DNA from: Escherichia coli
GTDB taxonomy: Bacteria; Pseudomonadota; Gammaproteobacteria; Enterobacterales; Enterobacteriaceae
Direction: 5' to 3' (one strand)
Length of the DNA: 23,863 bases
Assembly (NCBI RefSeq): GCF_003334255.1
Contig: NZ_QOWU01000065.1
Under the pieces are notes generated by a model, which ran no database searches, was not told where the DNA came from, and worked only from the letters and a program-made list of their open reading frames with translations. Positions 12,924-14,920 of the stretch are shown here, piece after piece (position 1 is the first letter of the stretch; every line of letters begins with the position of its first letter). The position numbers were made by a program, and so were the translations under genes.

Positions 12924-13757
12924 ATGATGAAGCTGGGATTTAATGAAGCGACCTGTATGCGAAACTCCACGCTGGCACAGGATGTTGTGTTGGCGGAACG
13001 TTTTGGCTATGACTACATTGAAATCCGTCTGGATATGTTGCAGGAGTGGTTGCAGAAACATACGTTAAGCGAGCTGGCAGACATTTTCGCCGTCGGCCAT
13101 CTTAAGCCCTGGGGCTACAATTCGCTGGAAGACATTACGTTTTGTGATAGCGAAAGCTGGGCGGAGAAACGGCGGCAGTTGGCTTTCGCCTGCCATGCTG
13201 GCTCAGTGGTGGGGGGGGATTGTCTGGTTGTGGTGCCCACCATTCGTCAGGGGGGAAATTTTCCGCCAGGGGAAACGGTGAAAGATTCAGTGAAGCGTCT
13301 GCGCGAGATGGCGGCAGTGGCGGAAGAAAGCCAGATGCGGCTGGCCTTTGAGCCGATCGGTTCCGCAGGATGCTGTGTGCGCAGTCTTGCCATGGCGATG
13401 GAGATCGTAGATGCGGTCGATCGCAGTAACGTCGGGCTGGTCGTCGATGCCTTTAATCTTTACCTGCACGATCAATGGCGGGATCTGACCACGCTTCGCC
13501 AGATCCCTGTGGAAAAGATCTTCGTTTACCATATTGATGACGCCGATAATCTGCCGCTGGCAACGCTGGAGCATTGCCATCGTCTGTTTCCTGGCAACGG
13601 CGTGATCCCACTGCATGAGATCACGCATGAGCTAGTGCAGAAGGGCTATGAGGGGATCTGTTCGCTGGAACTGTTTAACCCTGGCTACTGGCAGATGGCG
13701 GCCAGCGAAGTCTTTGCGATAGGGGCGGAAAAGACTCGCCCCTTCTTAGCAGCTTAA
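12924..13757 (+). CDS. iolI1: Inosose isomerase IolI (xylose-isomerase-like TIM-barrel)
   Basis: MMKLGFNEAT...GYDYIEIR...NVGLVVDAFNLYLH...IFVYHIDDAD aligns with Bacillus IolI. The ATG directly abuts the srfJ stop (tgaATG), with aggag 9 nt upstream. Confidence 0.8.
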   Translation: MMKLGFNEATCMRNSTLAQDVVLAERFGYDYIEIRLDMLQEWLQKHTLSELADIFAVGHLKPWGYNSLEDITFCDSESWAEKRRQLAFACHAGSVVGGDCLVVVPTIRQGGNFPPGETVKDSVKRLREMAAVAEESQMRLAFEPIGSAGCCVRSLAMAMEIVDAVDRSNVGLVVDAFNLYLHDQWRDLTTLRQIPVEKIFVYHIDDADNLPLATLEHCHRLFPGNGVIPLHEITHELVQKGYEGICSLELFNPGYWQMAASEVFAIGAEKTRPFLAA

Positions 13758-14920
13758 TGTTGCCGCAGCAGGAGATGGACAACCGCCGCGCCCAGCAGCG
13801 CGCAGGCCGCGGCCAGAAGAAAGACCTGCTGATAGCCGATAAACGGCGTCAGCAGGCCCGCTATTGGTCCGGTAAATCCGTAGGCCAGATCCTGAAACGC
13901 TGACCAGACGCCGAGGGCCGTACCACGAATCTCCGGTGGCACTCTGCGCACAACCTCTACGCCCAGCGATGGGAACATCAGCGAACAGCCGCAGCCGGTA
14001 ATCGCCGCGCCAATCAGCGCAGCGCCTGCTGACGGAGCGGACCACATTACCGCCAGTCCGGTCCCCTCTACCAGTAGTGAAAAGGTTGCGACCGTGGCGC
14101 CGCCGTAACGGTCGGGAAATTTGGCGCAGAAAAAGCGGACAGCGATAAACGCAATGCCAAATAGCGTCATCGCAAAACCGGTGTTATCCCAGTGACGCTC
14201 GTTGAACCAGAGGGCGGTAAACGCGCTTAGGGTGGCAAAACCAATGCCCTGGAGCACAAGCCCTGTTCCGGGCCGCCACACCAGGCCGACTACCCGTAGC
14301 ACTGGCACGCGGGGACGGGCTGTTGGGATATTCCCCGGAATGCCATAGATGACTCCTCTGGCGATGATCGGCAACAGCACGACGAGGAGCGCCGGAAGCG
14401 CCAGGCCGGCCCTGGCGTAAAGCGACAGCCCCAGCGGCGCGCCGATAGCCAGCGCACCGTAGGTCGCCATGCCGTTCCAGGAAATAACCTGACCCGCGTG
14501 GGTCGAGCCCGCCAGCCACATCCCCCAGGTTAAATTACCGGTCAAAATGAAACTTTCACCGATGCCCAGCAGCACACGACCAACAATCAGTATGGCCCAT
14601 GCGAGCAGCGGAACCGGGTGAGCGATTAGACTGACCAGCATCAGCAGACCTGATGCGGCGCAGTAGAACTGACCGGTGATAACCGTCCGACGTCCGCCTG
14701 ACGTGTCGGCTTTTCGACCCGCGGCGCCCCGGGTAAGCAAGGTGGCGATAAACTGGCTGCCTACCGCGATACCGATCAACAGATCGCTCAGATGCAACTG
14801 CTGCTGAACGTACAGCGGCAGCATGACTAACGGGATGCCAATAGTCAGATAGTTGAGAAACATCGCGGCGCTGATGCGAAACAGCGTGATCGATGTGGAA
14901 TGTTGTGTGAGAGCTGGCAT
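13754..14920 (-). CDS. MFS transporter of unknown substrate, GC-rich, 388 aa
   Basis: Highly hydrophobic 388-aa product with about 12 predicted TM segments. About 65% GC in a hand-counted 60-bp sample, which explains the many spurious overlapping ORFs in other frames. Its stop overlaps the iolI1 stop on the opposite strand (13754-13757). Confidence 0.75.
   Translation of the reverse strand: MPALTQHSTSITLFRISAAMFLNYLTIGIPLVMLPLYVQQQLHLSDLLIGIAVGSQFIATLLTRGAAGRKADTSGGRRTVITGQFYCAASGLLMLVSLIAHPVPLLAWAILIVGRVLLGIGESFILTGNLTWGMWLAGSTHAGQVISWNGMATYGALAIGAPLGLSLYARAGLALPALLVVLLPIIARGVIYGIPGNIPTARPRVPVLRVVGLVWRPGTGLVLQGIGFATLSAFTALWFNERHWDNTGFAMTLFGIAFIAVRFFCAKFPDRYGGATVATFSLLVEGTGLAVMWSAPSAGAALIGAAITGCGCSLMFPSLGVEVVRRVPPEIRGTALGVWSAFQDLAYGFTGPIAGLLTPFIGYQQVFLLAAACALLGAAVVHLLLRQH

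Follow-up and report, generated by a model that had tools for sequence, protein, structure and literature searches.

The Escherichia coli K-12 proteins YfcJ (b2322; TC 2.A.1.46.6) and YhhS (b3473; TC 2.A.1.46.7) are MFS transporters of the UMF1/'UPF0226' subfamily, no member of which has been purified or demonstrated to transport anything (PMC10588857). Deletion of either yfcJ or yhhS raises apparent intracellular arabinose, and overexpression of either has no arabinose effect (PMC3429515); YhhS has also been tied, through a gain of function, to resistance against glyphosate, according to work cited in PMC10588857. The evidence for efflux by both proteins is indirect. A survey of the genomic neighbourhoods of YfcJ homologues found no specific pathway or process predictable for YfcJ (PMC10588857).

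A relative of these proteins is encoded in the myo-inositol island of Salmonella enterica, GEI4417/4436, between iolI1 and iolC. We take it to be STM4428 in the LT2 numbering. A literature search for 'STM4428' returned no paper, the locus tags are absent from the TraDIS supplements searched, and nothing on transport, expression or mutants of this MFS gene was found in the searchable literature. Promoters have been published for the Salmonella island, PiolC1 among them and none for the MFS gene (PMC10783015), and a fragment upstream of iolI1 showed no promoter activity, with only PiolE and PsrfJ active (PMC5723671). The island of E. coli ED1a is nearly colinear with that of Salmonella (PMC9430895). 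Here we analyse a window of 23,863 nt, which is the ED1a-type E. coli version of the Salmonella myo-inositol island.

The transporter and its family

The MFS gene occupies 13754..14920 on the minus strand (388 aa; RefSeq WP_001111173.1, 'MFS transporter') and opens with an ATG preceded, at 7 nt, by the Shine-Dalgarno sequence AAGGA. A preliminary description had placed a 388-aa MFS gene here, and the ORF and its family models, which score above cut-off, bear this out. Pfam MFS_1 matches both halves of the protein and was the only model found in the Pfam search, in which Sugar_tr (PF00083) gave no match. Two NCBIfam models exceed their cut-offs, PRK05122 (486.1 bits, cut-off 374) and PRK12382 (455.6 bits, cut-off 364), and the multidrug model TIGR00880 (24.3 bits against 131) and the D-galactonate transporter model TIGR00893 (a weak 21.8 bits against 395) fall far below theirs. 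Motif A (G68-R-K-A-D72-T-S-G75-G-R-R) falls in the helix 2–3 loop, and its G68, D72 and G75 are invariant in 36 homologues.

The protein is 48% identical to YfcJ over 386 residues and 39% identical to YhhS, and has in common with them motif A, the invariant residues R115, E285 and D344, length, an Ala/Gly/Leu-rich composition and raised GC. The gene, already annotated, encodes an ordinary membrane transporter of the YfcJ/YhhS family. It is a paralogue rather than an orthologue of YfcJ, which is encoded at the core fabB-yfcJ-flk locus, as its position in the iol island and its 48–50% identity to core-locus YfcJ proteins indicate. The other MFS proteins of the island, IolT1 and IolT2 of the sugar-porter family and an RbtT/DalT/CsbX-type permease, belong to other subfamilies. 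The Salmonella counterpart shares 385 of 388 residues, the neighbouring genes, the leader and Shine-Dalgarno sequence, and the stop-codon overlap described below.

An AlphaFold2 model (pLDDT 89.4, pTM 0.86) contains 12 helices arranged as 6+6 around a central loop at residues 191–206. A Foldseek structure search matched it to hundreds of MFS structures, the best solved ones being VMAT1/2, NorA, VAChT, MFSD10 and SPNS2, with sugar porters absent from the top 50; a sequence search of PDB chains gave no match at E ≤ 0.001. The predicted fold is nearest to proton-antiporter-type exporters and not to sugar porters. The DHA1-type antiporters among these best matches (NorA, VMAT1/2, VAChT and MFSD10; TM-score 0.75–0.84, Foldseek E ~1e-10) have only 14–19% identity in sequence, a level that leaves the direction of transport unfixed.

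The dN/dS of the gene is 0.09 against a 78%-identical E. coli variant, the single comparison from which the value is drawn because dS is saturated for more distant pairs; the E. coli to Salmonella value of 0.57 comes from about 5 substitutions and is uninformative. Its non-synonymous rate is 2–4 times that of the core iol enzymes, as expected of a dispensable accessory gene.

Gene order around iolC and the IS91-family element

Each of the 14 relatives examined with at least 51% identity lies within an iol cluster. In ten of them (from Salmonella, the 78%-identical E. coli variant, C. braakii, Phytobacter, Pluralibacter, Serratia, Rouxiella, Citrobacter sp., Sodalis and Yokenella) the MFS gene directly follows iolC on the same strand, across a spacer of 60–141 nt, and in Brenneria goodwinii the gene ahead of it is an iolI1 homologue, again on the same strand. 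The near-identical Salmonella copy was missed by a peptide-pattern scan of contigs and was found by exact look-ups. Four homologues were examined at 48–52% identity: those of Raoultella and Pseudocitrobacter occupy the unrelated core fabB-yfcJ-flk locus, that of an Erwinia MAG has no iol genes nearby, and that of K. pneumoniae stands beside IolG/IolE-type genes without iolC. In a neighbour-joining tree the protein falls among iol-linked homologues that are as far from core YfcJ as from one another; as the tree lacks bootstrap support, we do not claim a single clade of iol-linked proteins.

In the window, iolC (bifunctional 5-dehydro-2-deoxygluconokinase/aldolase; 16797..18734, minus strand; annotated, and matching NCBIfam NF047869 at 885 bits) stands ahead of the MFS gene in the native order. 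The Salmonella MFS gene starts 60 nt after iolC, whereas here the spacer contains an element of about 1.8 kb (~1816 bp; 14933..16748, minus strand), its junctions set against the empty Salmonella site. This element lies 13 nt upstream of the MFS ATG. What is retained beyond it is the native leader (14921..14932, minus strand), with the Shine-Dalgarno AAGGA at 14932–14928, which matches the Salmonella spacer AAGGACGATTCC-ATG exactly. On the other side, directly 3′ of the iolC stop, stands a GC-rich hairpin, CACGCCCC-N17-GGGGCGTG (16752..16784, minus strand), with a weak U-tail; by its alignment to Salmonella it is the leftover of the native iolC–MFS spacer.

IS91-family elements have a Y2 rolling-circle transposase and insert beside GTTC or CTTG without target duplication. 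The present element lies directly behind GTTC, and apart from 2 nt of ambiguity at its boundary no sequence is duplicated. It carries a transposase pseudogene with an internal stop (RefSeq; 15123..16310, minus strand), whose two fragments match Pfam Zn_Tnp_IS91 and Y2_Tnp, and upstream of this a small ORF of 115 aa (16314..16661, minus strand) that had no NCBIfam match and is labelled 'transposase' in the annotation of an intact plasmid copy. The interval 14928–16752 is 89–92% identical to plasmid-borne IS91-family copies, and on plasmid pM172-1.1 the transposase is intact (395 aa). The Y2 transposase domains, small upstream ORF, length and target site place the element in the IS91 family. All seven complete E. 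coli genomes in which the island occurs have the insertion. The preliminary description had overlooked it. An Rfam scan of the window returned STnc490 only, inside an IS200 copy.

Upstream of the MFS gene, no sigma-70-like site with at least 8 of 12 matches was found within 300 nt in eight other loci, and in the window no outward promoter was found in the facing end of the IS91-family element, even at 8/12 matches. The scan of native spacers is weak evidence, since activator-dependent promoters can escape detection. The 60-nt Salmonella spacer folds at −27.7 kcal/mol (RNA fold), and the hairpins that follow iolC in Serratia, Citrobacter sp. and C. braakii resemble full intrinsic terminators with a T-run, so that read-through may be slight or an activator-dependent promoter may have gone unrecognised.

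GC content and the overlap with iolI1

The preliminary description had presented the gene as strongly GC-rich beside AT-rich iol neighbours, at about 65% against 35–45%. It is the GC-richest gene of the window (z ~2.0 for total GC, ~1.4 for GC3), but the contrast is much smaller: whole-gene GC is 60.4% (60-bp windows mean 0.61, range 0.45–0.72), against 54.6% for iolI1, 53.2% for srfJ, 53–55% for the IS91 ORFs and 56.1% for iolC, and 50.0% for the whole window. The AT-richer genes are only iolE (42.6%) and iolG1 (48.5%), both more than 2 kb away. Relative to the mean of iolI1 and iolC, the excess at codon positions 1, 2 and 3 is −0.01, +0.10 and +0.06, so that position 2 holds about two-thirds of it, because the product is an Ala/Gly/Leu/Pro-rich membrane protein. 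The K-12 paralogues yfcJ and yhhS each have 56.7% GC, and across hosts GC2 of the MFS gene stays at ~0.50 in every case while its GC3 follows that of iolC (r = 0.82). High GC is inherent in this protein family and does not signal a separate origin. Of the two reservations in the preliminary description, that GC over the whole gene might prove unexceptional was borne out for the family, whereas the subfamily is not the kind of drug-efflux family, plainly unconnected with sugars, for which it had also allowed.

The convergent partner, iolI1 (2-keto-myo-inositol isomerase; 12924..13757, plus strand, by annotation), ends the iolE-iolG1-srfJ-iolI1 run. Direct reading places both stop codons in a palindromic TTAA at 13754..13757, the iolI1 TAA at 13755–13757 (plus strand) and the MFS TAA at 13756–13754 (minus strand), an overlap of 4 nt. 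The earlier claim that the overlapping stops leave no room for terminators held up: TTAA is common to both stops, and no intrinsic-terminator-like hairpin with a T-run was found in the ~400 nt beyond each stop. One GC-rich inverted repeat, at 13785–13813, lacks a T-run. The same TTAA overlap occurs in Salmonella and in the 78%-identical E. coli variant, and Phytobacter has CTAA; it is absent from C. braakii (10-nt gap) and Pluralibacter (60-nt gap with a hairpin). In K-12, yfcJ overlaps the convergent flk through an identical TTAA. Convergent overlaps of four bases (CTAA, TTAA, CTAG, TTAG) form the modal class, and a count for E. coli gave 58 convergent overlaps (PMC2174442). The overlap with iolI1 is a common, weakly conserved arrangement, not above chance in any interesting sense.

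Proposed role and alternative readings

On balance, we lean towards reading this gene as an island paralogue of YfcJ that encodes an accessory carrier, likely an exporter, ancestrally expressed by read-through from iolC and separated from it here by the IS91-family element. The product is a YfcJ/YhhS-type MFS carrier (TC 2.A.1.46) with 12 helices, probably proton-coupled, and its gene belongs to the myo-inositol catabolic island. In the ancestral layout, which Salmonella shares with no fewer than nine further lineages of enterobacteria, iolC is followed by a hairpin and then by the MFS gene with no recognisable promoter; we infer that the carrier would be weakly expressed, from transcripts that start at the iolC promoter, which IolR controls and inositol induces, and read on into the MFS gene. 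Uptake is already served by IolT1, IolT2 and the polyol-type permease of the same island, and the carrier would most likely act as an exporter, a relief valve for inositol, a pathway intermediate or a by-product. Candidate cargoes are inosose or keto-deoxy sugar acids near the IolC step. In this E. coli the ribosome-binding site is kept and 1.8 kb of IS DNA stands between iolC and the MFS gene, and the intact ORF is probably poorly expressed as a consequence of the insertion. The preliminary description had suggested either an inositol isomer or pathway intermediate as substrate or an unrelated efflux function, and both suggestions survive, as the conserved gene order ties the gene to the inositol pathway and its MFS branch is of efflux type and not a sugar-porter one.

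The carrier could instead import an accessory substrate, such as scyllo- or D-chiro-inositol, inosose, or scavenged 5-deoxyglucuronate or 2-deoxy-5-keto-gluconate, with the product entering near the IolI1 and IolC steps. The flanking of the gene by iolC and iolI1 in Salmonella-type islands and its place after the iolI1 homologue in Brenneria goodwinii fit such a role, and conserved iol linkage is silent on direction in a family without a proven substrate; yet three uptake-type carriers are already encoded in the island, the predicted fold is nearer to antiporter-type exporters than to sugar or polyol symporters, and the sole reported phenotypes of paralogues point to efflux, so that we consider import possible but rather unlikely. 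We hold it unlikely, too, and more so than import, that the gene is a generic efflux or housekeeping copy of yfcJ with no role in inositol metabolism, retained by linkage alone. Such a passenger would account for its absence from the ~15 of at least 20 island genes implicated in myo-inositol degradation (PMC10783015), for a dN above that of the core enzymes and for the toleration of the IS between iolC and the MFS gene in ED1a-type strains. It would leave unexplained why the position after iolC is kept in at least ten lineages, despite identity falling to 51% and rearranged flanks, and why dN/dS is far below 1; moreover, a separate core yfcJ is kept, or could be kept, in these genomes.

Two further readings concern the surroundings of the gene. 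Its top rank in GC within the window and the adjoining IS91-family element might suggest the separate, recent acquisition of a GC-rich gene, possibly through that element. This is extremely improbable: in all island variants the gene and its neighbours have diverged together, its GC3 tracks iolC with an excess mainly at codon position 2, and the K-12 paralogues are equally GC-rich. A separate horizontal origin or capture by IS91 is contradicted by Salmonella, which has the 385/388-identical gene in the same place without the IS. The overlap with iolI1, for its part, might form a convergent 'excludon', in which colliding or pairing transcripts of the two sides tune each other, an arrangement compatible with the other readings. 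The overlapping stops, with no terminator after either gene, would allow it; iolI1 is reached from PiolE and PsrfJ; and a list of 165 convergent excludons in E. coli K-12 includes both of the paralogous pairs, flk-yfcJ and dcrB-yhhS (PMC12288877). We find this very doubtful nonetheless, as the overlap is unconserved in C. braakii and Pluralibacter and belongs to the commonest class, and mutual exclusion makes little sense because both operons respond to the same inducer. In this window, moreover, the MFS side is without its promoter link: the IS91-family element stands between the gene on one side and iolC with the only evident promoter on the other, and transcription from the MFS side, and hence mutual interference, is therefore probably weaker than in Salmonella.

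Returning to the accessory carrier, we suggest tentatively, as a possibility short of an expectation, that iol-linked YfcJ-like carriers might stand apart in function, as transporters of one particular intermediate or by-product of inositol catabolism. If so, export of inosose or 2-deoxy-5-keto-gluconate, for example, would adjust how much IolR inducer is present and, with it, the long, bistable myo-inositol lag of Salmonella, the orphan YfcJ/YhhS (UMF1) family would gain its first physiological substrate, and the E. coli allele interrupted by IS91 would offer a natural comparison. Any comparison of the inositol phenotypes of ED1a-type strains and Salmonella should take account of the IS91 insertion between iolC and the MFS gene in the former. 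For a family without an established substrate, a branch of YfcJ/YhhS that stands consistently right after iolC, a placement not included in the published survey of YfcJ neighbourhoods, offers a testable functional lead.

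A YfcJ-like transporter in the inositol island

The open reading frame at window 13754-14920 (minus strand) encodes 388 aa behind a good ribosome-binding site (AAGGA, 7 nt, ATG), confirming the gene and its boundaries as given in the preliminary description. Pfam finds MFS_1 only, with one match per half of the protein. The HMM classification proposed there as a check places the product in the YfcJ/YhhS subfamily, above both curated NCBIfam cut-offs (PRK05122, 486 bits, cut-off 374; PRK12382, 456 bits, cut-off 364), and the protein is 48% identical to K-12 YfcJ and 39% to YhhS; we assign it with very high confidence as a YfcJ-like MFS paralogue. 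Its 90%-identity protein cluster (3,380 members) mixes it with IolC and has a 645-aa IolC as representative, probably through a clustering artefact or a mis-called fusion bridging the short iolC-MFS spacer.

AlphaFold2, run with 36 homologues, gives a confident model (pLDDT 89.4, pTM 0.86) with helices arranged 6+6. The closest solved structures are proton-antiporter-type carriers (VMAT1/2, NorA, VAChT, MFSD10 and SPNS2; TM-score 0.75-0.84, 14-19% identity), and no sugar porter appears among the best 50 structural matches. Searching PDB chains by sequence returned zero matches at E <= 0.001. No substrate has, to our knowledge, been proven for the family (TC 2.A.1.46).

Among 5,426 complete E. 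coli genomes, 7 have a chromosome that matches window 11500-17000 at 100% identity, and the exact MFS protein is also encoded by E. coli ED1a (CU928162.2). RefSeq annotates the surroundings as a myo-inositol island, in the order iolR, iolT1, iolT2, iolB, iolA, reiD, iolE, iolG1, srfJ, iolI1, "MFS transporter", IS91 pseudogene, iolC, iolD, iolG2 and a second MFS gene. The island is known in Salmonella as GEI4417/4436; published work describes the ED1a version as nearly colinear and as missing iolI2 and iolH, and speaks of "a fourth transporter gene" (PMC9430895). Here the island stops at an IS66 element located after the second MFS gene and beyond the right end of the window (26382-28694 in the longer L001 numbering), in agreement with the reported lack of iolI2 and iolH in ED1a. 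An IS110 pseudogene lies between iolR and iolT1 (RefSeq), and the iolT2-iolB interval contains an IS200/IS605 tnpA (window 4434-4916, minus strand) with its STnc490 RNA (4875-4998, minus strand; Rfam, 146 bits). In Salmonella the sRNA STnc1740 is encoded between iolT2 and iolB, and the 3′ end of iolB overlaps RssR (PMC6288124). A second, frameshifted IS200/IS605 tnpA (RefSeq; window about 8834-9255, L001 11335-11756) sits in the reiD-iolE interval, upstream of the important PiolE promoter region. Both iolC (16797-18734, 645 aa) and iolD (19139-21088, about 646 aa) are single intact ORFs in the window and in a Salmonella Typhimurium assembly; in papers on Salmonella they go by the split names iolC1/iolC2 and iolD1/iolD2, and such splits were seen in one poorer assembly (L014), alongside many other frameshifts.

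Linkage to iolC across lineages

All relatives that could be placed and are at least 51% identical to the MFS protein belong to iol clusters. In ten lineages the gene comes right after iolC, on the same strand: Salmonella (385/388 residues identical, gap 60 nt), a diverged E. coli island variant (78%, 64 nt), Citrobacter braakii (71%, 70 nt), Phytobacter (68%, 68 nt), Pluralibacter (59%, 141 nt), Serratia (58%, 124 nt), Rouxiella (56%, 109 nt), Sodalis (55%, 94 nt), Yokenella (54%, 73 nt) and Citrobacter sp. JGM124 (51%, 87 nt). The Salmonella enterica protein thus differs at 3 of its 388 residues, and in the serovar Typhimurium assembly the gene starts 60 nt past the iolC end and keeps a 4-nt overlap with iolI1. 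Three relatives, from two Brenneria species and one Enterobacterales metagenome bin, have other arrangements among iol genes; in Brenneria goodwinii the gene immediately follows an iolI1 homologue. A Klebsiella pneumoniae homologue (52%) has IolG/IolE-type genes and a sugar ABC system as neighbours. The Raoultella and Pseudocitrobacter homologues (roughly 50% identical) occupy the core fabB-yfcJ-flk locus and are true YfcJ orthologues.

Relative to the 78% variant, the MFS gene has a dN/dS of 0.09 and is clearly constrained, with a dN 2-4 times that of iolC, iolD and iolG1. Together, this constraint and the iolC linkage across lineages speak against a passenger gene and point to a conserved accessory function connected with the iolC step.

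Base composition and the stop-codon overlap

Two features had first drawn attention to the gene, its GC content and its stop-codon overlap, and both are ordinary. A GC content of about 65% against 35-45% in neighbouring genes was not borne out: the whole gene is 60.4% GC and adjacent genes are 53-56% (iolI1 54.6%, srfJ 53.2%, iolC 56.1%; whole window 50.0%), and only iolE (42.6%) and iolG1 (48.5%) are AT-richer. The excess over the iolI1/iolC mean is -0.01, +0.10 and +0.06 at codon positions 1, 2 and 3, and is for the most part a matter of amino-acid composition (13% Ala, 12% Gly, 15% Leu, 5% Pro, 0.5% Lys). Across 11 versions of the locus from different hosts, GC2 stays near 0.50 versus 0.42 in iolC, while GC3 tracks that of iolC (r = 0.82, mean difference 0.013); K-12 yfcJ and yhhS are each 56.7% GC, with GC2 of 0.47-0.50. 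The composition is therefore unexceptional within this family and does not point to a separate origin.

The overlap itself is as described, with the iolI1 TAA (13755-13757, plus strand) and the MFS TAA (13756 to 13754, minus strand) sharing the palindrome TTAA, and there is indeed no room for terminators between the genes. Within about 400 nt past each stop, no hairpin with a T-run that would resemble a terminator was found. Four-base overlaps (CTAA, TTAA, CTAG, TTAG) are the modal class of convergent overlap, and a count in E. coli gave 58 convergent overlaps (PMC2174442). The K-12 paralogues are arranged similarly: yfcJ and flk overlap tail-to-tail by 4 nt through the same TTAA (6943-6946 of the K-12 flk/yfcJ locus, L028), and yhhS ends 3 nt from convergent dcrB (6513-6517 of L027). 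Both pairs are listed as K-12 convergent excludons (PMC12288877), which would favour a regulatory role for the iolI1-MFS overlap. Salmonella iolI1 lacks its own promoter and is transcribed from PiolE with inositol and from PsrfJ under SPI-2 conditions (PMC5723671), so that transcripts from this side must run into the MFS gene and end inside it. The iolI1 start (12924) directly follows the srfJ stop (which ends at 12923) with zero gap, which fits translational coupling and the reported absence of an iolI1 promoter. Antisense effects are possible; however, the overlap is not a conserved device: Salmonella, the 78% variant and Phytobacter have it, whereas the two genes stand 10 nt apart in C. braakii and, in Pluralibacter, 60 nt apart with a hairpin in the gap. 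A regulatory role is very unlikely, and weaker still in the window, where the MFS side is cut off from its promoter.

Expression and possible function

Each of the eight spacers examined has a GC-rich hairpin after iolC. The Serratia, Citrobacter sp. JGM124 and C. braakii hairpins carry a clear T-run and resemble complete intrinsic terminators; the Salmonella one has just TTC as its tail and stops 13 nt short of the MFS ATG, leaving no room for a promoter. In the 300 nt preceding the MFS start, none of the eight loci has a sigma-70-like site scoring at least 8/12. From these hairpins and the lack of a promoter-like site we infer that the gene would be expressed at a low level by read-through from the iolC promoter, itself controlled by IolR, CRP and H-NS.

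In the window this arrangement is interrupted by an IS91-family element that the preliminary description missed. Alignment with the empty Salmonella site places about 1,816 bp at 14933-16748 (ambiguous by 2 nt), inserted right after GTTC in the 60-nt spacer, 13 nt upstream of the MFS ATG, with the iolC hairpin on one side and the Shine-Dalgarno sequence on the other. The inserted DNA shares 89-92% identity with IS91-family elements from plasmids and contains a transposase pseudogene with an internal stop and a small upstream ORF. It is absent in Salmonella and present in each of the seven complete E. coli genomes with the island, none of which has an uninterrupted iolC-MFS junction. The 280 nt of IS DNA upstream of the ATG contain no promoter-like site, and a terminator-like hairpin lies at 15061-15043. 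The MFS gene is intact and keeps its ribosome-binding site, and is probably poorly transcribed owing to the insertion.

The genomic context makes a functional tie to inositol catabolism likely. Deletion of yfcJ or yhhS raised apparent intracellular arabinose, but their overexpression changed nothing (PMC3429515); work cited in PMC10588857 connects YhhS with glyphosate resistance. Mutants in yfcJ are defective in bo3 oxidase, with copper and iron uptake unchanged, and a neighbourhood survey could not predict a specific pathway or process for YfcJ (PMC10588857). The efflux-type fold, the weak efflux phenotypes of the paralogues and the position after iolC make an exporter the most likely reading: as a relief valve, the protein may release inositol, or else an intermediate or by-product of the pathway, a suggestion we advance with some reserve. 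Import of an accessory substrate ranks second. Uptake carriers already in the island are IolT1, IolT2 and a polyol-type permease, the second MFS protein (22364-23590), which belongs to the RbtT/DalT/CsbX family (TIGR00897, 411 bits, cut-off 375) and is a more natural candidate than the YfcJ-like protein for uptake of an inositol isomer. The strain-specific IS91 insertion is one of two useful results, and the conserved iolC-to-MFS linkage provides a testable lead for an orphan transporter family.
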